From sequence record PZ026127.1: a stretch of DNA of 64,000 nucleotides; one strand, 5' to 3'. The position numbers and the translations under genes were made by a program. This DNA is from a phage. The notes under the pieces are model-generated. The model was not told where the DNA came from, did not search any database, and saw only the letters and a list, made by a program, of their open reading frames with translations. Below are positions 26,866 through 36,336 of this stretch, one piece after another (position 1 is the first letter of the stretch; each line of letters opens with the position of its first letter).

Positions 26866-27143
26866 TGTTTGTAGTTCATACAATTTCAGACTATGGTCCT
26901 ACCACTACAATGGATTATGGTCATGTAAACCAGTTTATTCGTCATGTGAATCATGATTACTCATTTGATGTAAATCCGGCTAAAGACCATCCTGTTTGGC
27001 GCGAATGCGTCGAACAGGGATTCATTTATGTCCACTTTATGTCCAAGTTCAAATCTGATGGGCGAATGAGATTTGTGTTCTCTTATCATAAGCGATTAGA
27101 CTTGCTTTTGGCTGATGTGGCTTATAATAGAATCCATGACTAA
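26866..27143 (+). CDS. hypothetical protein (92 aa)
   Basis: ATG 26866 immediately after the upstream stop. Confidence 0.5.
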
Positions 27144-27153
27144 TGAGGTGATT

Positions 27154-28677
27154 ATGATTTTAGATATTTTAAACGAAATTGCTGCTATTGATTCTACTAA
27201 AGCTAAAGAAGCCATTATTGCTCGTGAAAAGGACAATGAGCTTCTGAAACGTGTTTATCGTATGGCGTATACCCGTCGTCTGAACTACGGTATTAAAAAG
27301 TGGCCAGAACCTGGATTTACATCTCAATCCTTTGGTATGATTACTCTTGAAGACCTTCTTGATTTCGCTGAATTCACATTAGCCACACGTAAGATTACGG
27401 GTAATGCGGCTATTGAAGAACTGGCTCAAATCATTGCTGATGCTAAGGCCCCGGATGCCGAGGTATTACGTCGTGTAATGATGCGCGACCTTGAATGTGG
27501 TGCATCGATTTCTATTGCTAACAAGGTTTGGAAAGGTTTAATCCCTGAACAACCGCAGATGTTGGCGAGTTCTTATGATGAAGCTTTGATTAAGAAAAAT
27601 ATTAAATGGCCAGCGTTTGCTCAATTAAAAGCTGATGGCGCTCGTTGTTTTGCTGAAGTTCGTAATGATGGTGTGACGTTCCTTACTCGTGGTGGTAATG
27701 AATACCAAGGGCTTCATCTTTTAGCTGCTGAATTAATGGTGATGACCGAAGAAGCTCGTCAACGTCATCCTAATGGTGTTATGATTGATGGTGAATTAGT
27801 TTACCATACTCCTAAAGTAGAACCTAAAGCATCTAATGATTTGTTTAGTATGTTTGATGAGGAACTTCCTGAATTAAGTAAGGCTAAGGAATTCCAAACT
27901 GTCGCCGATCGTTCCACTTCAAACGGCTTGGCTAACAAGGCTCTTCAAGGAACTATTACTCCGACCGAAGCCGCAGGTATGGTATTACAGGCATGGGATT
28001 ATGTCCCATTGGATGTCGTATATTCCGAAGGTAAAATTAAAGGCGATAAGTATGATGTACGCTTTACAGCCTTAGAACTTATGGTTGCCCATAATGTCGT
28101 ATTGCATGGTACAACGCGTGTTGAAGCTATTGAAAACCAATGGGTTAACAATTTGGCTGAAGCTAAAGCGGTTTATAAGAAATATATCGGTAAACGCTTG
28201 GAAGGTATTATCCTTAAGAACATGGACTCCTACTGGGAGAACCGCCGTTCTAAGAATCTTATCAAGTTCAAAGAAGTAATCGATATTGCTTTAGAAGTAG
28301 TAGGTTACTATGAACACTCGAAGGACCCCAATAAGATTGGCGGTATAGAGTTAGTATCACGTTGTCGTCGTATTACAACTGACTGTGGTTCTGGTTTTAA
28401 AGATACCACCCATAAGAAAGATAAATCTGGTAAAAAGGTATTGATTCCATTGGAAGATCGTCCTGATTTAGACCGTGAACTTCTTATGAAACAAGCCCGT
28501 GAAGGTAAGTTGATTGGGCGTATTGCCGACTGTGAATGTAATGGGTGGGTTCATTCTAAAGGACGCACTGATACTGTAAGTATTTTCCTTCCAACTATTA
28601 AAGGTTGGCGTTTCGATAAAACGGAAGCCGATTCATTTGAAGATGTATTTGGCGATTGGTCTCAAACTGGACTATAA
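27154..28677 (+). CDS. 30: ATP-dependent DNA ligase
   Basis: 507 aa from MILDILNEIAAI (GAGGTG Shine-Dalgarno); ligase motifs FAQLKADGARCFAEV (active-site lysine), MIDGELV, and overall match to T4 DNA ligase. Confidence 0.95.
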   Translation: MILDILNEIAAIDSTKAKEAIIAREKDNELLKRVYRMAYTRRLNYGIKKWPEPGFTSQSFGMITLEDLLDFAEFTLATRKITGNAAIEELAQIIADAKAPDAEVLRRVMMRDLECGASISIANKVWKGLIPEQPQMLASSYDEALIKKNIKWPAFAQLKADGARCFAEVRNDGVTFLTRGGNEYQGLHLLAAELMVMTEEARQRHPNGVMIDGELVYHTPKVEPKASNDLFSMFDEELPELSKAKEFQTVADRSTSNGLANKALQGTITPTEAAGMVLQAWDYVPLDVVYSEGKIKGDKYDVRFTALELMVAHNVVLHGTTRVEAIENQWVNNLAEAKAVYKKYIGKRLEGIILKNMDSYWENRRSKNLIKFKEVIDIALEVVGYYEHSKDPNKIGGIELVSRCRRITTDCGSGFKDTTHKKDKSGKKVLIPLEDRPDLDRELLMKQAREGKLIGRIADCECNGWVHSKGRTDTVSIFLPTIKGWRFDKTEADSFEDVFGDWSQTGL

Positions 28678-28678
28678 T

Positions 28679-28861
28679 ATGAAAGCTTATTTAGAAACCG
28701 TGGTTATTGGATATAAAGAAGGTGGCGATGTCTCCACCGCAGTGTCCCAAATTGTCCTTGAATTTGAAAATGAAATCGCATTCGCTGATTTTAAAGATAA
28801 TTTCGACCGCTATGAAAAGGGTCCTAAATTTGAAGTATACCGTACGTTGCTACCACTTTAA
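28679..28861 (+). CDS. hypothetical protein (60 aa)
   Basis: ATG 28679 two nt after the ligase stop. Confidence 0.45.
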   Translation: MKAYLETVVIGYKEGGDVSTAVSQIVLEFENEIAFADFKDNFDRYEKGPKFEVYRTLLPL

Positions 28862-28878
28862 GGCCTTCGGGCCTTTTC
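28862..28878 (+). terminator. CUUCGG hairpin terminator
   Basis: GGCCTTCGGGCC then TTTTCT. Confidence 0.6.
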
Positions 28879-28911
28879 TGGCATAAATAAGGTTATTAAA
28901 GAGGAATTATT

Positions 28912-30807
28912 ATGTCCGAACAATTGAATGAGGTATTTGACGGCGCTATAGATTTATCAGCTGTCAATTTAAACCCTAAACTTAAAGTACCGCAGATTTG
29001 GAATATAAAGGCTGAAGGTAATGAGAACCTTGTTGCACGCATGGTTTCATATACTTCTGAAGGTGATACAATCCGCCAAGTTAAACCGGGTGACAAATAC
29101 GTTCATATTATTTTAATGAGCCTATCATCTAAAGGGGCCCCGGCAGAACTCAAAGGTGGTTTAGGTAGTAACCCCATTTCCGCTATTCGTTCTATATTTG
29201 ATACGGTTTATGAACAAGTTAAAAAGCTCCGTATGGATGCCGTTATGTTCCGTTTTCCTACTAAGAAAATGAAAGGTCAGGAAAAAGCTGTACAACGAGT
29301 TCTAGCCAAATTAATAGCTACTAGAGCAGGTGGGCAATTCAAGGTCCTTGATGCCTTGTATCAATATACAGGCAAACATTCATATGTTTTTATCTATCGT
29401 AAAAATAAAAATATAGAATCAATAAACGGTATTCCTAATATTAATCCGGAATTGTATACTAAAGTCGAATCTGAAGTCGGTGATGTGTATGTTTCAAAGA
29501 AAACAGGCGAAGATGTTACCAAATTAGAAGCTATAGCTAAGTCTATAGACGAAATAGAAAAATCACGTTCTGATAAAATGGTTATAACCAAGACTAAGGT
29601 TTCTAAACGGGCCGCTATAAATGCGTTATATTCTACCGCCGAGCCTACAGGATTGAGTAAATTTTCGGCAGAGCACAAAAAAGCTTATGCAGATTATTCT
29701 GCTACTAGTTCCGTTCATTCTTCTGAAGATTCTAAAGAAAGCCAAATAGCTTTAGCCAGTAATAAAATATTAAAAGACGCCTCTAAAGAAATGGCAGAAT
29801 ATTTGGATTATATTTTTAACGGTGTTAATCCATCATTTGAAGTAGACGAGCGCAAACTTAAACTAATTGCTGATATAAAGTTTGCTTTAGAGGCATCAGA
29901 TTCTTTAGATAAATCTAATAGTGTCATAGAGGCTTTAAAATCAGGTAAATCTCATGTAGACATTCTTAGACTAGTCGCTGCGGCCCTTTTAGATGATTCA
30001 GTTAAAGGTACTTGGGCTAGAGAATCTAAAATCAAGGAAGTAATAAAATCCTTAGTAGCAGTTTATACAAAATCTATCCAACCGTTGTTTAAGATATCTG
30101 ATAATCCTAATTTATCCAAACCTCAAGAAGAGGCAGTCAAAAAGTATACTCGTGGCGGCTACAACCATATAAACAACTTTTTGCTAGGTAAAACAGATAC
30201 CACCGATGAAATGATAAAAATGATTGGTGAGTTGGATTCTACATTTGAAAATGGTACAAAACTTCCTAAAGGAACCATAGTGTATCGTTCTCAGATAATG
30301 CCTACCGAAATGGCTTTGAATTCTATAAAACATAAGGTGATGTATCTTCCTATTTTTGCATCAACTTCATTGGCTCCTAATATTTTCGGTGAAATGGGTC
30401 ATGCTCAATCCAACTTAGACCCTGAAGCTCTTTCTAGCGATATAGATAGTAATCTTGAAGACACCATTAAAAGTGCGACCGGAAGTGCTAGAGATACCAT
30501 TAAGCTAGGGCTAATTATTAAAGGTGCTGATAAAATTAAGGTTATTGTGCCCGGTGACTTGGCTAATTGGTCTACAGAAACCGAAGTAATTCTTCCTCGT
30601 GGGGTTATGCTTAAGATTAATAAAGTATACGGTGCTTCCAAGGGACCTATGGGTTCAATTGGTAAATATGTTTTAGTGGAATGTGAAGTTGTAGCTACCG
30701 AGCAAATCACAGAGGAAAATTCATATAGCACCGGATTCTCGTTTGGAAATTATGATAGAATTATGTATGAAGATTCTATGGAAAAATTAGCAAATTTATT
30801 TAAATAG
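28912..30807 (+). CDS. Alt-like ADP-ribosyltransferase paralog 1 (631 aa)
   Basis: N-terminal module shared with the next two ORFs; C-terminal VYRSQ...FASTSL...STETEVILPRG (R / STS / ExE). Confidence 0.8.
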   Translation: MSEQLNEVFDGAIDLSAVNLNPKLKVPQIWNIKAEGNENLVARMVSYTSEGDTIRQVKPGDKYVHIILMSLSSKGAPAELKGGLGSNPISAIRSIFDTVYEQVKKLRMDAVMFRFPTKKMKGQEKAVQRVLAKLIATRAGGQFKVLDALYQYTGKHSYVFIYRKNKNIESINGIPNINPELYTKVESEVGDVYVSKKTGEDVTKLEAIAKSIDEIEKSRSDKMVITKTKVSKRAAINALYSTAEPTGLSKFSAEHKKAYADYSATSSVHSSEDSKESQIALASNKILKDASKEMAEYLDYIFNGVNPSFEVDERKLKLIADIKFALEASDSLDKSNSVIEALKSGKSHVDILRLVAAALLDDSVKGTWARESKIKEVIKSLVAVYTKSIQPLFKISDNPNLSKPQEEAVKKYTRGGYNHINNFLLGKTDTTDEMIKMIGELDSTFENGTKLPKGTIVYRSQIMPTEMALNSIKHKVMYLPIFASTSLAPNIFGEMGHAQSNLDPEALSSDIDSNLEDTIKSATGSARDTIKLGLIIKGADKIKVIVPGDLANWSTETEVILPRGVMLKINKVYGASKGPMGSIGKYVLVECEVVATEQITEENSYSTGFSFGNYDRIMYEDSMEKLANLFK

Positions 30808-30815
30808 GATAGATT

Positions 30816-32897
30816 ATGACCCAATTAAATGAAGTGTTCGAGTCCGAAGGTACACTGCCTGTTGTGAACTTGAACCCAAAACTTAAAGTACCTCAGATTT
30901 GGAAGATTGGAGACGCGGAGTCTCAGTTAGTAGCACGTATGGTATCCTATGCTTCTGAAGGCGATGCTATTAAACAGGTTAAGATGGGTGATAAATATGC
31001 CCACGTTATCCTTATGAGCCTTTCAGCTAAAGGTTCGCCTGCCGAACTTAAAGGCGGCTTAGGCCCTACTCCTGTAGATGCGATTAATACTATTTTTGAT
31101 GTAGTTTATGACCAAGTTAAAAAGCTTCGTATGGATGCCGTGATGTTCCGTTTTCCTACCAAGAAAATGAAAGGTCAAGGCCCTATCGTTCAACGTATTA
31201 TCCAACGTTTGGTAGCACAGAAAACCGGTGGACGTTTTAAAGTGGTTCCGGCTATGTACCAATTTACCGGTAAACATACTTACATCCTGGTAGTCCGTAA
31301 ACAAGCTGATATCGAAGATATCAAAGGTATGCCTGGAATTAATGCTGAATTGTATACTAAGGTAGATTCTGATGTCGGTGAAGTTTATATTTCCAAAAAA
31401 GAAGGTGTGCAGGTTACTAAAGAAACTGCTATTGCTGGCAGTATTGCTAAGGTTGAAGAACGTCGCACTGATAAAATGGTTATAACCAAGACTAAGATTT
31501 CTAGGCGCGCCATTGCAGCAAGCCAATCATTGGAATCTTATCGTAATGAAAGTGAATTGTTTAAGAAATATGAAGCTACTGCAGCGGATTTTAATAAACC
31601 GGCAACAGTTCCATTAATCCCTGAGGCTCAGGAAATGGTTACTAATAACAATTCTCCTGCGGCTAAAAATAAGGTTGCTAATATAGTGGCTGAAGGCACT
31701 GCTGAAGAATTGCATTACGATTATAAAATGTTTCCTCTTCACGGTATAGGTGAAATCCAAGAGAAAATTAAAGAGAAAATTCTTACAGCAATAAAAAACG
31801 AACCTTTGACATCTGTTAAAGCTCTAGAAAAATATGCCTCTGCTATTAATACCGTTTTCGAAGAATACAAAGGTGAATGGCTGGCTATCCATAACAGAAC
31901 TCGTAAAGGCCAACCTGATGACCTTTGGAACGAATTGACAGAGGCCAAGTGGAAAGCAGCCAAGACTAAGTTCATTAAAAAACGTGTATATAGTTTTGCT
32001 GGTGTGGGTGGCGGTATTATGGTTGATATTACTATTGCTCGTGAGGGCTCTAAATATACCCCATCACAAAAGCGCGGAATCAGAGAATATTGTGGTTCAG
32101 GATATACAGACATAAATAATCTTCTTTTAGGACGTTATAATCCTCAGAACTATGAGGTTATGAGCGAAAAAGATATCGAATCTGCAGTTAATAATTTGGA
32201 TTCTGCTTTTGAAAACGGCGACCGTATACCAGAAGGCATCACAGTTTATCGCGCACAGAGTATGACTGCTCCTATATACGAAGCACTAGTTAAAAATAAA
32301 GTGTTCTATTTCAGAAATTTTGTATCTACTTCTTTAACTCCTATCATTTTCGGACGTTTTGGTGTTACCCACGCAGGTATTGGTCTTTTAGAACCTGAAG
32401 TTCGCAATGAATTGACAGTCGATAAAAATGAAGAAGGAATAACTATTAACCCTAATGAAATAAGAGCGTATAAAGAAAACCCTGATTACGTTAAAGTTCA
32501 AATAGGATGGGTAATTGATGGAGCCCATAAAGTTAATGTCGTATATCCAGGAAATCTCGGAATAGCAACTGAAGCCGAAGTTATTCTGCCGCGTGGATTA
32601 ATGGTCAAAGTTAATAAAATAACAGATGCTTCTAATAATGATGGAACAACATCTAGTAATACAAAACTCATCCAAGCTGAAGTTATGACAACAGATGAGC
32701 TTCAAGAATCTGTGGTATATGATGGTGACGTACTAATGGAAACCGGCGAGCTGGTCGTGTATCAAGATGATTTCGATACTTCCGAAAGCCCTGTATCTTT
32801 TGATTCATTTGTTAAATCTACACGGTTTGATGTACTGCCTCTTTTGGCTTCATGCATAGACCTCTATGACATCCCAGAAAAATTCATCCAAGGGTAA
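30816..32897 (+). CDS. alt: Alt ADP-ribosyltransferase (693 aa; closest to T4 Alt)
   Basis: length near T4 Alt (682 aa); VYRAQ...FVSTSL...ATEAEVILPRG; recognised from memory as Alt family. Confidence 0.85.
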   Translation: MTQLNEVFESEGTLPVVNLNPKLKVPQIWKIGDAESQLVARMVSYASEGDAIKQVKMGDKYAHVILMSLSAKGSPAELKGGLGPTPVDAINTIFDVVYDQVKKLRMDAVMFRFPTKKMKGQGPIVQRIIQRLVAQKTGGRFKVVPAMYQFTGKHTYILVVRKQADIEDIKGMPGINAELYTKVDSDVGEVYISKKEGVQVTKETAIAGSIAKVEERRTDKMVITKTKISRRAIAASQSLESYRNESELFKKYEATAADFNKPATVPLIPEAQEMVTNNNSPAAKNKVANIVAEGTAEELHYDYKMFPLHGIGEIQEKIKEKILTAIKNEPLTSVKALEKYASAINTVFEEYKGEWLAIHNRTRKGQPDDLWNELTEAKWKAAKTKFIKKRVYSFAGVGGGIMVDITIAREGSKYTPSQKRGIREYCGSGYTDINNLLLGRYNPQNYEVMSEKDIESAVNNLDSAFENGDRIPEGITVYRAQSMTAPIYEALVKNKVFYFRNFVSTSLTPIIFGRFGVTHAGIGLLEPEVRNELTVDKNEEGITINPNEIRAYKENPDYVKVQIGWVIDGAHKVNVVYPGNLGIATEAEVILPRGLMVKVNKITDASNNDGTTSSNTKLIQAEVMTTDELQESVVYDGDVLMETGELVVYQDDFDTSESPVSFDSFVKSTRFDVLPLLASCIDLYDIPEKFIQG

Positions 32898-32900
32898 ATA

Positions 32901-35024
32901 ATGGAAAATTTAAACGAGGTTTTTGATAGTGATTCCGCTAAAAACTATCCAGTAACAAATCTTAAACCGGGTTCCGGTATTCCACAGATTTTCTCTATCC
33001 AAGCACCAGGTAACGATAACCTGGTTGCTCGCATGGTATCTTATGCGTCTGAAGGCGACGCTATTAAGATGGTTAAGGCGGGCGATAAGTACGTCCATGT
33101 TATCTTAATGAGTTTATCTGCTAAAGGCGCTCCGGCAGAACTCAAGGGTGGGTTGGGTACCGATCCACTCGGTACACTGAACACCATTTTCGATACCATA
33201 TACGAACAAATAAACAAACTTAAAATGGACGCGGTTTTATTCCGTTTCCCTACTAAGAAAATGAAAGGTAAAGGCCCTACCGTTCAGCGCGTATTAGCTC
33301 GTTTGGCTATGGCCCGTACCGGTGGTAAGTTTAAAGTTGTTGACGACATGTTCCAATTCAGCGGAAAACATACCTACGTTCTTTTAGTACGTCGTGGTGC
33401 TAATATTGAAGATATCAAGGGTATGCCTGAAATTAATGCCGATCTTTATACTAAAGTTGAGTCTAAAGTTGGCGAAGTGTATGTTTCTAAGAAAACCGGC
33501 CAGGCCGTAAGTAAGGTCGAAGCAGTAGCGGCATCTATTGCACAAGTTGAAGAGAAACGTACTGATAAGGCTGTCATTACCCGTACTAAGATTTCCCGTC
33601 GTATGGCAGCAGCCGCACAGTATTCTACTGCCGAGCCTGAAACTTTGTCCCCTAAAGAATTGCAGGTTTATAACGAGTTTGAAGCTTCTGTACCGGTTCA
33701 CACGGCTGAAGGCCCTGAGAATGAAGGTATTGAACAGATTAGTCAGAACTTTAAAAAAGGTGCTATTACTAAAATGCGCCAGGCTTCTCAGTTTAAATCT
33801 AAGAGCGAGGACCTTGCCAACTTTAGATACACTATTGCTCTCACACACGCTTTAATGACTGATAGTAAATTTAAACTAAATTATGCTAATAGAGATAAAC
33901 AAGGGTTTGAAATTTACTCTAATAATATGGCATTTTTTAATACAGAAGTCGATAGACTTTTAAGTGGCCTTTCGCAAATCAATACAACCAATAGTCTGGA
34001 TATTATTAAGAAAATTGTTAATAACCTGAGTACCCGTTTTAAGGGTTCCCCTTCAGAGAAAGCATCTAGAATTGCTTTCGCTATGGAAGCCGTTTATAAA
34101 CTGGTTAACGATTCTATTAGTGATGCATATGCTTATTCAGGCGAGCTCATTAAACCTAAGGACCTAACCAAAGACGAAAGCAATGCTATTATTGAATATT
34201 GCGCGGCTGAATATGCTCCTATGAACTTATTCCTTTTAGGTAAACCTGAATCCGAAAACAATACAACGGCTATTAAATTGATTAAGGATTTAGACTCGGC
34301 ATTTACTAAGGGTATTAAACTTCCTAAGGGTACTATTTTGTATCGTGGTCAGGATTTGCCATACAAAATTCTGCGCCATAATATCGATAACAAAACATTT
34401 TACTTTAAGAACTTTGTGTCAGCCTCACTAAAACCTAACATCTTTGGTGAATTTGGTAAAAATTATATGGCCCTCGACAACCAAGCCGTTTTTGTTGGCG
34501 GTGAAGGTTCTTTATCCTCCGCTGATGAGTTGTTTAAATTGGCTAGTGGTAGTTCGTCTGATGTAGGTGAAGTCGATGACGAAGAGGTAGAATGGGAAGA
34601 AGACGAGTTTGGTAATCCAATTGCACCTGAAGGTCCTGCAGATAGAATTGCTGAAATTGGTATGGTTATTCGAGGTGCTGAAGCAGTTAAAGTTATCGCT
34701 CCTGGTGACCTTACAGAATATGCCGAAGAAGCAGAAATTATCCTTCCGCGTGGATTATTGTTGAAGGTTGATAAAGTAGCGGCTTTTGCCATGAATGATA
34801 GAGTATCTCACAAATACCTTATGGAAGCTACCGTAACACCTCCTTCAGAGCTCAGCGAATCTGTTTACGATGGTGACCATTTGATGGAAACTGGTGAAGT
34901 TCGCCTGATGGATGGGTTCAGTCAATTCTTGGTTAATGAATCTGTTTCTGAAAGCAACGAGGCTATGGAAATCCTTGCAGCGTCTTTGGATATCTCTTCT
35001 TTATCAAATAAATTCAAAATGTAG
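32901..35024 (+). CDS. Alt-like ADP-ribosyltransferase paralog 3 (707 aa)
   Basis: shared N-terminal module; C-terminal LYRGQ...FVSASL...AEEAEIILPRG with an acidic insertion. Confidence 0.8.
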   Translation: MENLNEVFDSDSAKNYPVTNLKPGSGIPQIFSIQAPGNDNLVARMVSYASEGDAIKMVKAGDKYVHVILMSLSAKGAPAELKGGLGTDPLGTLNTIFDTIYEQINKLKMDAVLFRFPTKKMKGKGPTVQRVLARLAMARTGGKFKVVDDMFQFSGKHTYVLLVRRGANIEDIKGMPEINADLYTKVESKVGEVYVSKKTGQAVSKVEAVAASIAQVEEKRTDKAVITRTKISRRMAAAAQYSTAEPETLSPKELQVYNEFEASVPVHTAEGPENEGIEQISQNFKKGAITKMRQASQFKSKSEDLANFRYTIALTHALMTDSKFKLNYANRDKQGFEIYSNNMAFFNTEVDRLLSGLSQINTTNSLDIIKKIVNNLSTRFKGSPSEKASRIAFAMEAVYKLVNDSISDAYAYSGELIKPKDLTKDESNAIIEYCAAEYAPMNLFLLGKPESENNTTAIKLIKDLDSAFTKGIKLPKGTILYRGQDLPYKILRHNIDNKTFYFKNFVSASLKPNIFGEFGKNYMALDNQAVFVGGEGSLSSADELFKLASGSSSDVGEVDDEEVEWEEDEFGNPIAPEGPADRIAEIGMVIRGAEAVKVIAPGDLTEYAEEAEIILPRGLLLKVDKVAAFAMNDRVSHKYLMEATVTPPSELSESVYDGDHLMETGEVRLMDGFSQFLVNESVSESNEAMEILAASLDISSLSNKFKM

Positions 35025-35053
35025 TTTACAACACCACAAGGATGTGGTACTAT
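35024..35053 (+). promoter_or_regulatory. early promoter cassette
   Basis: GTTTAC, 18 nt, TACTAT, then ACATGAGGAGAACATT leader. Confidence 0.55.
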
Positions 35054-35081
35054 TACCTTACACAAACATGAGGAGAACATT

Positions 35082-35372
35082 ATGAAATCTGCATTCCGTT
35101 TTAATGGTCAAGAACTGGTAGTTGAAAACGTTATCCCTGCTTCTGAAGAGTTTGACAGTGCAGTGGGTAATGAATTACGTCGAGTTTTCGGTGAAGACAA
35201 ACAGTTTGATATCCGACCTGTTGAGAATTTTTCTTATCCAGAACAAACCGAAAACATTTTTAACGGTGTAGTGACAGGACAACTCGAATCCGAAGCTCCT
35301 ATTTCGGTTACGGTGTTTGTTAAAAAGCAACCACTAATGACCACAGCAGGTTTCATTTCGTTCCGTAAATAA
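35082..35372 (+). CDS. hypothetical protein (96 aa)
   Basis: ORF bracketed by its own early promoter and terminator. Confidence 0.6.
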   Translation: MKSAFRFNGQELVVENVIPASEEFDSAVGNELRRVFGEDKQFDIRPVENFSYPEQTENIFNGVVTGQLESEAPISVTVFVKKQPLMTTAGFISFRK

Positions 35373-35406: not shown

Positions 35407-36336
35407 TTATAACAACCTCGATATTCCACTATTAACCAATCCTGTTAATCCACTAGAAGCTCCTGAAAGTCGGCTTAATTTAGCTACTGAAGAACTCAGG
35501 GAATTGCTCTCACTTATACCCGCCACGCCTTTAAGGACTTTATCTTCCAACCATTCATAAGCAGCTTGTTTGCCAACTGCACCAGTCTGTACACTTCTAT
35601 AAGCAAATGTAACATCAAATGAAGCAATTTGGTTATCACCGTCGTAAGATAATTCCGGGGAAGATACGCTCATTGGAACGCAACCATTAAGCATTACTAC
35701 CGTATGTGGTAATCCATTACGGGAATGAAGGTTGACTTGAATGTCAGCTTCAACATCCTCCGGTAATGCTCTTAATTGTGTAATAGGGTCTTGAACACTA
35801 TTGACCCAATCATTAAAAGCACGGTAGTTAGCAGCTTCAGAATCCATACGGAAGCTTAATACTAATGGAGAATATTCTCTTCCGGTAATTTTGATGTTAG
35901 GTGAGTTGTGGTTCAAATCCATTTCATAGTTCAAAGTATTATCCGGGATTTTAACGGCGTGGACTAAAAGACCTGCCGTAGGATAGGCCATATTGAAAAA
36001 ATCCATCAGATATGTACCTACTTCAAACTCTCCTAGTAAGCTCTGCACAACCCTGGATGACATAGCTCCAATCAAATATTTACTTATGCCTGACTTACGA
36101 ATCAACTTCTGAGTGCCCGCTGTCACTAATGTCGTAACACCTTGGGTCAACTCTCCTTGTGTAATACCAAACAAATCGCTATTCAATGGGATATTGTTAA
36201 ATAAAGCTCCACCGAACTGGTCGAGGAGCGCTTGAGATTTAGAAGAAGGAACCGTTGCAAATACCACACTAAACAGGTTATTCCTTTGTAGGTCAATATT
36301 AATTGCCTGATTCTGAAATTCTTGTAAAGTATACAT
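35407..36336 (-). CDS. 54: baseplate tail-tube initiator gp54
   Basis: 309 aa; MYTLQEFQNQAINIDLQRNNLFSVVFAT resembles T4 gp54; synteny. Confidence 0.88.
   Translation of the reverse strand: MYTLQEFQNQAINIDLQRNNLFSVVFATVPSSKSQALLDQFGGALFNNIPLNSDLFGITQGELTQGVTTLVTAGTQKLIRKSGISKYLIGAMSSRVVQSLLGEFEVGTYLMDFFNMAYPTAGLLVHAVKIPDNTLNYEMDLNHNSPNIKITGREYSPLVLSFRMDSEAANYRAFNDWVNSVQDPITQLRALPEDVEADIQVNLHSRNGLPHTVVMLNGCVPMSVSSPELSYDGDNQIASFDVTFAYRSVQTGAVGKQAAYEWLEDKVLKGVAGISESNSLSSSVAKLSRLSGASSGLTGLVNSGISRLL

Follow-up and report, generated by a model that had tools for sequence, protein, structure and literature searches.

Is the third of three tandem Alt genes in a Dhakavirus, a T4-type phage resembling JS98, still an enzyme and, if so, could it act on targets of its own? 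The question arises from the DNA analysed here (64,000 nucleotides of the phage record PZ026127.1, hereafter the window), where copy 3 departs from its two neighbours at two sites. Its region 2 strand reads FVSASL instead of FASTSL (copy 1) and FVSTSL (copy 2, as in T4 Alt), and an acidic insertion, DVGEVDDEEVEWEEDEFGNP (amino acids 554-573), precedes the catalytic loop AEEAE-IILPRG. A sequence-only reading had noticed both features within nucleotides 34341-34760, a range which extends from Y481-R482 to just past ILPRG, and both are borne out by the open reading frames. Its suggestion that copy 3 has altered its substrate preference or represents an inactive decoy is considered in the following. 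All features described are located on the plus strand.

The Alt array and its neighbourhood

Both the list of open reading frames and the sequence itself reveal three tandem Alt genes. Copy 1 (28912-30807) encodes a third, shorter Alt type of 631 amino acids without the conserved C-terminal tail. Phage 04086 has a copy of 100% identity, and JS98 and QL01 have none. Copy 2 (30816-32897) encodes the AltA-type paralogue of 693 amino acids with its canonical FVSTSL motif and shares 49% identity with T4 Alt, so that this copy, and not copy 3, is the T4 Alt orthologue of the window. Its stop codon is situated 3 nt ahead of the start of copy 3 (32901..35024), which encodes an AltB-type paralogue of 707 amino acids. 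PHROG 802 ('Alt-like RNA polymerase ADP-ribosyltransferase') matches the latter over its full length (amino acids 1-707; 830.9 bits). Pfam PF03496 (ADPrib_exo_Tox) matches it with 63.3 bits, which is above the curated gathering threshold of 23.4, this match being broken into two stretches around a hypervariable loop described below, while a search of NCBIfam with copy 3 yielded no match. Genes of the copy 3 type are annotated as 'altb' in JS98, JS10 and IME08, and copy 3 is a member of this second Alt lineage, AltB, whose annotated representatives include those of JS98, IME08 and T2-like phages. With a pI of 5.35 and a net charge of -14 it is the most acidic of the three paralogues (pI 8.5 for copy 1 and 6.0 for copy 2).

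The array is flanked by the ligase gene (27115-28677) on one side and by alt.-3 (DUF5498; 35082-35372) and gp54 (35407-36336) on the other, and the gene order gene 30 / alt.1 - Alt - alt.-3 / gene 54 is alike in the window, JS98 and T4. Upstream of copy 1 a GC hairpin with a T-run (ggccttcgggcc tttt), followed by CATAAATA, is directly readable at 28862..28889. The latter resembles the T4 late-promoter box with one mismatch and is located about 23 nt upstream of the copy 1 start; judged by their letters, both elements may be functional. No perfect T4 late promoter (TATAAATA) is present within 28600-35100.

Domain architecture of copy 3

Close to its N terminus copy 3 carries a putative cleavage motif of the prohead protease gp21, L4-N5-E6 (32910..32918), which would mark the end of an N-terminal propeptide. 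The pattern (L/I)-x-E is found at the equivalent site of all three copies, of T4 Alt and of Tequatrovirus AltA and AltB, with E6 reaching at least 90% conservation in the family-wide alignment of 70 sequences. Since gp21 removes a short N-terminal propeptide from T4 Alt (PMC9026906), copy 3 itself would presumably be cleaved in the same way. The conserved N-terminal domain (amino acids 1-230; 32901..33590), delimited by sequence identity and by the full-length AlphaFold2 model, in which it adopts a confident alpha/beta fold, is presumed to be the capsid-incorporation module common to all paralogues; by analogy with T4 Alt (PMC9026906) it would serve packaging of copy 3. Identity to copy 2-type proteins amounts to about 66% in the first 240 amino acids and to about 34% in the C-terminal part. 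The middle domain (amino acids 233-417; 33597..34151) is all-helical in the model (H233-H417) and specific to the AltB lineage, as it can be aligned to Tequatrovirus AltB but neither to copy 2 nor to T4 Alt.

The ADP-ribosyltransferase catalytic domain (amino acids 424-650; 34170..34850) is predicted to adopt a C3/VIP2-like fold. Its AlphaFold2 model (pLDDT 82.8, pTM 0.79) retrieves Vis, C3bot1, Certhrax, CDTa and VIP2 in Foldseek with a probability of 1.00 and E-values from 2e-9 to 1e-6, while a sequence search of the PDB revealed no solved Alt structure and only marginal C3-like matches. Downstream of this domain the alignment reveals a conserved motif containing L-x-E, H660-L-M-E-T-G-E666 (34878..34898). 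LMETGE is present in copies 2 and 3, T4 Alt and Tequatrovirus AltA and AltB and is missing from copy 1; the C-terminal family consensus in the 70-sequence alignment reads YDGDxxxETGE. T4 Alt, of which about 40 copies reside in each head, is processed by gp21 at both ends (PMC9026906), and L661-M-E663 is a candidate C-terminal gp21 cleavage site of copy 3.

Active-site residues and the S-A-S strand

The defining triad of these enzymes consists of an arginine, the first serine of region 2 and an E-x-E motif (PMC3102197). Relatives of copy 3 were gathered by an exhaustive search of representatives, as a word-indexed search with the catalytic domain gave two matches only, both being Tequatrovirus AltB at 54% identity. 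The motif columns were extracted by profile anchoring and from MAFFT alignments of 73 and 70 sequences.

In copy 3 the triad is complete. The region 1 arginine, Arg482 (Y481-R482-G483; 34344..34346), occupies an invariant column and is located on strand E480-487 of the full-length model. According to alignments and model, region 2 corresponds to S507-A508-S509 (34419..34427), which is S-T-S in most relatives; it is part of FVSASL (amino acids 505-510; 34413-34430), with Ala508 encoded by gcc at 34422-34424, and forms strand E506-509 in the AlphaFold2 models. Region 3, the E-x-E motif E610-A611-E612 (34728..34736), is situated at the end of the ARTT turn within AEEAEIILPRG (amino acids 608-618), the ILPRG portion of which ends at 34754. 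R482, S507, E610 and E612 are invariant across 70-73 diverse Alt-family proteins, and all four are kept in copy 3. S509 is at least 90% conserved, while position 508 is variable, threonine staying below 90%. Copy 3 thus displays all three regions of the arginine-specific R-S-EXE (ARTC) class: an aromatic residue with arginine after it, [YFL]-R-x, on beta-strand 1, the region 2 serine on beta-strand 3, and the E-x-E of region 3, where the glutamate two residues upstream of the catalytic glutamate specifies arginine as acceptor (PMC3102197).

As the sequence-only reading stated in general terms, the S-T-S strand helps to position NAD+, and it contributes to holding the NAD+ site together (PMC3000352, PMC6829252). 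Published region 2 patterns of toxins are [YF]-x-S-T-[SQT], the strict pattern of the CT group (PMC3000352; Fieldhouse et al. 2010), and S-[TS]-[STQ] (PMC6829252). F-V-S-A-S of copy 3 fits neither of them, and 12 of the 73 Alt representatives, copy 3 included, depart from the strict pattern, which indicates that this pattern fits the characterised toxins and not the whole family. In these 12 proteins the middle residue is alanine (four, among them copy 3), cysteine (seven) or serine (one), and the arginine as well as E-x-E are intact in all of them. The nearest neighbour of each S-A-S protein is an S-T-S protein, which implies at least four independent Thr-to-Ala changes. Free variation of this position among active homologues, which the sequence-only reading had named as speaking against its own proposal, is thereby nearly reached, the activity of the homologues being judged from their residues. 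In iota toxin the corresponding exchange, T339A, leaves 20% of wild-type activity. The Thr-to-Ala exchange in copy 3 is probably a tolerated variant and, given its intact triad, copy 3 is probably catalytically active.

The acidic loop

The region 2 strand leads into L510-K-P-N-I-F-G516 (34428..34448), where P512 reaches at least 90% conservation and the relatives share the consensus 'SLxPxIF'. By its position after the S-x-S strand this conserved segment would open the PN (phosphate-nicotinamide) loop (PMC3000352). Amino acids 517-582 (34449..34646), which connect the PN loop to the next core strand, make up the hypervariable loop, as recognised from breaks in the Pfam and HMMER matches, from its statistics and from the model; HMMER matches of copy 3 to most relatives split here. 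Within this loop, and thus between the S-x-S strand and E610-A-E612, the acidic/aromatic stretch noted at the outset is encoded by 34560..34619, and most of it lies in one gap-free insertion of 22 amino acids relative to Tequatrovirus AltB.

The spacer from the S-x-S strand to the next core strand comprises 75 amino acids in copy 3, 55 in copy 2 and 44 in copy 1. This goes beyond chance. Among the 73 family members the spacer of copy 3 is the longest (median 43.5, next 65) and, at -15, the extreme in net charge, compared to a median of -4 and a runner-up at -9. It is also the richest in acidic residues per 20 amino acids (11; next 9). Compared to the 72 open reading frames of at least 100 amino acids in the window, copy 3 also holds the most acidic 20-residue stretch, if narrowly (11 versus 10 in three others). 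The insertion extends an already long and variable loop and does not interrupt a tight turn. AlphaFold2 predicts the loop to be flexible, with pLDDT values of 36-51 in the full-length model and of 46-77 in the domain model. The idea that it becomes ordered by docking on the basic N-terminal domain was rejected, since full-length modelling lowered confidence to the former range. An origin of the insertion by slippage is likewise unsupported, Tandem Repeats Finder having detected no tandem repeat in the DNA. A further difference to copy 2 concerns the ARTT turn, which reads TEYAEEAE in copy 3 versus GIATEAE in copy 2.

PN-loop insertions in related toxins possibly affect targeting (PMC3000352). 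The acidic loop of copy 3 is a real but modest lineage-specific feature which may steer target choice. A changed substrate preference, as had been proposed, is plausible, but the acidic loop with its conservation and the divergence of the ARTT turn are likelier causes of it than the Thr-to-Ala exchange.

Conservation and selection within Dhakavirus

The copy 3 gene is under strong purifying selection. Compared to JS98, dN/dS amounts to 0.054 for the gene, 0.062 for the catalytic domain and 0.015 for the loop. Within the acidic 33 amino acids, seven synonymous and no nonsynonymous substitutions separate the two phages. We fetched 14 Dhakavirus loci, which correspond to 13 distinct isolates (JS98 was fetched twice). 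S-A-S is kept in 14 out of 14, and the amino acids of the acidic segment are identical in the 13 loci read, namely vB_EcoM_005 and 12 isolates with an intact orthologue. The eight isolates that were added originate from six countries and show 4-9 nucleotide differences, all of them silent, in the codons for amino acids 548-585.

A single isolate, vB_EcoM_005, deviates from this picture. An in-frame deletion of 33 amino acids removes E-x-E from its orthologue, the rest of the reading frame being open. Intermediates might reveal whether the Thr-to-Ala change or the insertion came first, but phage genomes, viral contigs and metagenomes contained none between the AltB proteins of Dhakavirus (identity of at least 96%) and those of Tequatrovirus (54%). 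The only matches within the band of 80-90% identity are two records of vB_EcoM_005, the carrier of the deletion.

Possible function of copy 3

Taken as a whole, the explanation which we consider best, with a probability of roughly 0.6, is that copy 3 is the Dhakavirus AltB, an active arginine-specific ADP-ribosyltransferase in which alanine is tolerated within the region 2 strand and the acidic loop serves docking. AltB would then constitute a second lineage of mono-ADP-ribosyltransferases in T-even-type phages which are packaged into the head, co-injected with the DNA and specific for arginine. The threonine normally found at position 508 would stiffen the strand via a hydrogen bond of its side chain, neither contacting NAD+ nor taking part in chemistry, and with such a role its replacement by alanine may reduce or modulate the rate but would not abolish it. 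With lower confidence, the acidic/aromatic insertion of 22 amino acids would enlarge the hypervariable loop directly after the PN loop. Three elements contact the target in related toxins: the PN loop, the ARTT loop and the region B loop. Flexible and strictly conserved as it is, the insertion would most likely serve to dock the enzyme on a host protein by way of a positively charged, possibly nucleic-acid-binding surface of the latter, a role suggested by its position, charge and conservation. Since pLDDT is low in the loop, its location relative to the active site is a prediction. Together with the diverged ARTT turn it would provide AltB with a target set distinct from those of the co-injected AltA (copy 2) and of copy 1. 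Two points are to be set against this explanation. Activity reduced five-fold, as it is in iota T339A, could matter biologically, and the deletion in vB_EcoM_005 and the loss of AltB in T4 indicate that, under some conditions at least, phages can do without the activity.

It would be a rather bold extension, which we hold to be improbable, that the EVDDEEVEWEEDEF loop is a nucleic-acid-mimicking arm docking to a DNA- or RNA-binding host protein not modified by T4 Alt, for example a nucleoid protein or a nuclease directed against phages. In that case AltB would be a dedicated counter-defence ADP-ribosyltransferase of the first minute of infection, and Alt arrays would be arms-race cassettes of injected effectors.

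Among the alternatives, the loop might serve the virion stage by preventing the protein from sticking to packaged DNA, by facilitating its ejection through the tail or by masking the active site until injection. Alt proteins do reside inside the DNA-filled head (PMC9026906), copy 3 is the most acidic paralogue overall and its loop is predicted to be flexible. Copies 1 and 2, T4 Alt and Tequatrovirus AltB, however, are packaged or presumed to be packaged without such a loop, and a purely electrostatic role would not require every residue, tryptophan and phenylalanine included, to be fixed. We therefore regard this explanation as unlikely.

That copy 3 is a dead or nearly dead pseudo-enzyme with a non-catalytic role, be it as an internal head protein or as a decoy or binding protein which sequesters a host factor via its acidic loop, is suggested by the loss of a hydrogen bond that stabilises the active site upon replacement of threonine by alanine (PMC6829252), with iota T339A forfeiting 80% of its activity. 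The deletion of the E-x-E region in vB_EcoM_005 with its reading frame preserved points in the same direction, as does the loop being more conserved than much of the catalytic domain. Yet the family-invariant R482, S507, E610 and E612 are all kept in copy 3, while in relatives known to be inactive, XopAI for example, the region 1 arginine and the first serine are gone as well. Furthermore, dN/dS of the catalytic domain is as low as 0.06, S-A-S recurs in four lineages with intact triads, and the deletion is confined to one isolate. In view of these residues, the replacement of threonine in 12 of 73 relatives, a dN/dS of about 0.05 and the 20% activity left in iota T339A, the notion of an inactive decoy is unsupported, and we consider a pseudo-enzyme improbable.

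Still more doubtful is the assumption that the insertion is a neutral low-complexity expansion with S-A-S as a neutral hitch-hiker. Across the family the loop varies greatly in both length and sequence, other S-A-S relatives possess ordinary loops, and S-A-S and the insertion have each arisen once on the same branch, so that their correlation cannot be judged. Within Dhakavirus, however, the acidic segment has accumulated silent changes only: none of the seven differences to JS98 is nonsynonymous, and its amino acids are identical in every locus read, although eight of these loci carry 4-9 silent changes. Moreover, the DNA of the insertion is devoid of tandem-repeat structure. Finally, it is very improbable that S-A-S shifts the donor substrate to NAD-capped RNA (RNAylation, as by T4 ModB) or another NAD analogue, for although the S-T-S region contributes to binding on the adenine side (PMC3000352) and T4 ADP-ribosyltransferases differ in their use of NAD-RNA (ModB strong, Alt weak; PMC10468400), the threonine side chain is assigned a strand-stiffening role and no NAD contact, a strongly acidic loop beside the cleft should disfavour RNA, and a search for a feature common to copy 3 and ModB found none.

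In summary, copy 3 belongs to a known family, is itself uncharacterised and probably active, and may owe its target choice to the loop. T4 possesses one functional Alt and the broken remnant of a second, which means that all biochemistry on injected phage ADP-ribosyltransferases concerns the AltA type, and the published literature searched contains no biochemical data on any AltB. Many T-even relatives, on the other hand, inject Alt enzymes of two or three kinds, two in the case of T2-like phages and three in that of the Dhakavirus of the window. If the acidic loop sets target choice, the three paralogues would offer a simple system to study the selection of host proteins and may lead to new host targets; if not, an annotated gene merely harbours a tolerated variant of an active-site strand and a decorated loop.

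Comparison with known systems

T4 Alt (gpAlt, UniProt P12726), the head-packaged enzyme which ADP-ribosylates Arg265 of the RNA polymerase alpha subunit, resembles copy 3 in gene neighbourhood, three-part architecture, N-terminal L-x-E, LMETGE and the R, S and E-x-E residues. In contrast, overall identity is 32%, the middle domains cannot be aligned, S-T-S in T4 is opposed to S-A-S in copy 3, and the spacer between S-x-S and E-x-E is about 30 amino acids longer and far more acidic in copy 3.

The closest relative outside Dhakavirus is Tequatrovirus AltB, the product of the second alt gene of T2, RB14, RB18, wV7 and others, whose catalytic domain is 54% identical. Like copy 3 it is encoded downstream of alt, and its middle domain as well as its C-terminal '...KFKM' end can be aligned to those of copy 3. 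Unlike copy 3, however, it possesses the canonical FVSTSL and, in place of the 22-amino-acid acidic insertion, merely 'NEDAE'. T4 alt.-1 and alt.-2 are 95-98% identical to the first 117 amino acids of this protein, and AltB survives in T4 only as these fragments.

The predicted fold of copy 3 matches that of the C3-like, Vis and binary toxins of PF03496 (C3bot1, Vis, Certhrax, CDTa, iota Ia and VIP2) at identities of 13-19%. From S-T-S to [QE]-x-E these toxins comprise about 35 residues (our own count for C3bot1, using residue numbers in PDB titles) compared to 100 in copy 3. XopAI, a Xanthomonas effector with a degenerate ADP-ribosyltransferase domain (PMC6829252), shares with copy 3 an alanine at the middle position of region 2 (A-A-S). 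Yet it has lost the region 1 arginine (F-T-G) and the first serine and exhibits a charge-reversed cleft, whereas copy 3 has retained both residues.

Locus and transcription signals

The Alt region of the window is 92-98% identical in DNA to Dhakavirus genomes (JS98-like T4-type phages such as PSD9, WG01, QL01 and JS98), and JS98 and T4 display the same gene order around it. The gp30 DNA ligase gene (27115-28677) is followed by alt.1 and by three tandem Alt genes on the plus strand, copy 1 (28912-30807, 631 aa), copy 2 (30816-32897, 693 aa) and copy 3 (32901-35024, 707 aa), behind which lie alt.-3 (35082-35372, DUF5498) and, on the strand opposite to the Alt genes, gp54, gp48 and gp29. Over their full length all three copies belong to PHROG 802 ("Alt-like RNA polymerase ADP-ribosyltransferase"), and each scores above the Pfam PF03496 threshold. 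The longest ligase ORF (520 aa; 507 aa in the JS98 ligase) begins 14 codons 5' of 'MILDIL...' (27115-27156), which looks like the true start, the longer ORF then being a mechanical extension by ORF calling.

Since a perfect TATAAATA is found nowhere in the alt array and the gap between copies 2 and 3 is only 3 nt, the three Alt genes probably share one transcript. A GC-rich hairpin with a T-run follows alt.1 (28862-28889), and CATAAATA, with one mismatch to the T4 late-promoter box, is located 3' of it, about 23 nt before the start of copy 1. Across the whole window TATAAATA occurs 16 times (6.3 expected), the matches clustering on the minus strand at 51-61 kb, among the late genes for head and neck, where T4-type late promoters would be expected.

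Variation of the Alt array

The order copy 1, copy 2, copy 3 is present in the window and in phage 04086. The QL01 array (comparison locus L004, 2752-4794 set against window 28912-30807) consists of copy 2, then a paralogue of another kind (682 aa; 47-49% identity with copies 2 and 3), then copy 3, while that of JS98 holds two Alt copies only. The locus seems to behave as a cassette of injected effectors whose make-up varies. In phage 04086 (OR842557; L002, 10086-10892) a tandem triplication of about 235 nt (codons ~125-202) breaks up the copy 3 orthologue, so that the annotated CDS is truncated; this triplication may be an assembly artefact, the 177-kb record having only 148 annotated features. 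The orthologue of vB_EcoM_005 (NC_055783/MK295203; L008, 4797-6822) lacks 33 aa in frame (EEAEIILPRG...KYLM) including E-x-E, the remaining 675-aa ORF being intact with S-A-S and acidic loop. Inspection by eye shows a short GAAGC microhomology shared by the window sequence at both boundaries of this deletion. Either the deletion is natural, giving a catalytic knockout, or it stems from misassembly of a genome that measures only 155 kb.

Copy 1 (C-terminus, 30700-30807) lacks the tail YDGDxLMETGE ... PEKF, conserved in copies 2 and 3, T4 Alt and most relatives; it is basic overall (pI 8.5), the other Alt copies being acidic. Should gp21 make its C-terminal cut at LMETGE, processing of copy 1 would differ.

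The S-A-S motif and the catalytic residues

The stretch of copy 3 considered here opens with Y481-R482 and closes with the E-x-E strand. As the sequence-only reading had stated, region 2 reads FVSASL in copy 3 (aa 505-510; Ala508 encoded by gcc at 34422-34424) compared with FASTSL in copy 1 and FVSTSL in copy 2; T4 Alt likewise has FVSTSL. In two alignments (73 and 70 diverse members of the family, taken as representatives at no more than 50% identity from an exhaustive HMMER search), Y433, D465, R482, S507, E610, E612, R617 and G618 are invariant in the catalytic domain and S509 is conserved in at least 90%. Copy 3 possesses all of them, with AEEAEIILPRG at aa 608-618; position 508 belongs to neither class. 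Among the 73 sequences we find S-T-S 59 times, S-C-S seven, S-A-S four (including copy 3), S-T-T twice and S-S-S once, the region 1 Arg and E-x-E being present in 73/73 whatever the middle residue; in a wider extraction of 108 aligned domains Thr occupies position 508 in about 80%. The nearest neighbour of each S-A-S protein is an S-T-S protein, hence the exchange arose at least four times independently.

The family is defined by the triad R, S, E-x-E, of which the Thr is no part (PMC3102197). In iota toxin the mutants S338A, T339A and S340A retain activities of 5, 20 and 25 (wild type = 100). XopAI, for which altered cofactor use is suspected, has A-A-S, but its region 1 Arg is gone as well (PMC6829252), in contrast to copy 3, which keeps R482. 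Because position 508 is variable, the triad is intact, the iota T339A mutant keeps 20 and XopAI lost its Arg too, copy 3 is most likely an active enzyme, perhaps somewhat slower. The earlier suggestion that Thr-to-Ala may render it an inactive decoy is thus not borne out. That S-A-S changes the donor substrate in an RNAylation-like manner finds no support.

The acidic loop

The acidic insertion proposed before E-x-E is likewise present: DVGEVDDEEVEWEEDEFGNP, aa 554-573 (34560-34619). The Alt family is hypervariable in the segment that links the S-x-S strand to the following core strand; HMMER alignments of most relatives break here, as does the Pfam match of copy 3. At 75 aa the copy 3 segment is the longest among the 73 sequences (median 43.5, runner-up 65); it also has the most negative net charge (-15, against a median of -4 and -9 for the next) and the highest density of acidic residues (11 in 20; next 9). 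Compared with Tequatrovirus AltB its loop carries one 22-aa insertion, whose DNA shows no tandem-repeat signature.

Against JS98, dN/dS amounts to 0.054 for the whole gene, 0.062 for the catalytic domain and 0.015 for the variable loop (one nonsynonymous and 14 synonymous differences), with none versus seven in the 33 codons around the acidic stretch. S-A-S is kept in 14/14 Dhakavirus loci (13 distinct isolates, JS98 occurring twice), and in 13 of the 14 the acidic segment was verified to be identical. Eight added isolates, from Bangladesh, India, Denmark, USA, China and France, each show 4-9 nucleotide differences in aa 548-585, the only amino-acid change being A548T (CUA3), outside the acidic stretch. 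Judging from these substitutions, the gene is not decaying and the loop sequence itself is constrained. A neutral expansion of the loop is contradicted by this synonymous/nonsynonymous pattern.

AlphaFold2 predicts the catalytic core with confidence, the mean pLDDT being 82.8 in the domain model and 83.8 in the full-length model. Low pLDDT at aa 518-580 in both models (46-77 and 36-51, respectively) implies that the loop is probably flexible, and neither suggests its intramolecular docking.

Proposed role

Copy 3 evolves under purifying selection and has the Alt architecture, the catalytic residues, an N-terminal L-x-E and a C-terminal LMETGE. The latter two fit the cleavage logic of T4 Alt, which gp21 cuts at either end and of which each head contains about 40 copies. 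Copy 3 would be packaged, trimmed and injected alongside the DNA, and would then ADP-ribosylate arginines of host proteins with NAD+. With less confidence, its acidic/aromatic loop may dock on a basic surface of the target(s), giving copy 3 a target set unlike those of copies 2 and 1. Identity among the paralogues is about 66% over the N-terminal 240 aa and about 34% over the effector part, a modular pattern which fits diversified effectors carried by a shared delivery module. The ARTT turn preceding E-x-E differs too among the three copies.

That copy 3 is a pseudo-enzyme or decoy could be argued from two points only, the reduced activity of the iota mutant and the single isolate vB_EcoM_005 without E-x-E. 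That deletion and the loss of AltB by T4 (see below) show that AltB function is dispensable in some settings, not that it is absent in copy 3. The loop might possibly serve the virion stage, yet copies 1 and 2 and Tequatrovirus AltB do without one.

Comparison with known systems

The T4 Alt orthologue in the window is copy 2 (49% identity); copy 3, annotated "altb" in JS98, JS10 and IME08, shares only 32% with T4 Alt. Outside Dhakavirus, copy 3 is closest to the second alt genes of Tequatroviruses such as T2, RB18 and wV7, which are 54% identical in the catalytic domain and share its middle domain and C-terminal end. The T4 record describes alt.-1 and alt.-2 as an old partial duplication of alt. 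This origin is not tenable, since both (NC_000866; L003, 5066-5451) are 95-98% identical to residues 1-117 of an intact T2-like Tequatrovirus AltB (L009, 4806-6864) compared with 56-62% to T4's own Alt. T4 therefore carries a recently broken AltB, which it once had and then lost; this explains the absence of biochemistry on the AltB lineage.

The Alt family and its paralogues are already known: tandem alt duplications were noted as early as 2006 (PMC1524935), and more than 40 phage records contain the copy 3 gene as an annotated feature. Apparently undescribed is the pairing, in Dhakavirus AltB, of a recurrent S-A-S variant with a loop that is uniquely long, acidic and absolutely conserved. 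The interest of copy 3 is modest and lies chiefly in target choice by injected Alt enzymes. Its predicted core matches Vis, C3bot1, Certhrax, CDTa and VIP2, and the loop starts directly after the conserved L-K-P-N-I-F-G, by position the PN loop, which in related toxins is one of three target-contacting elements and where small insertions are described as possibly affecting targeting (PMC3000352).
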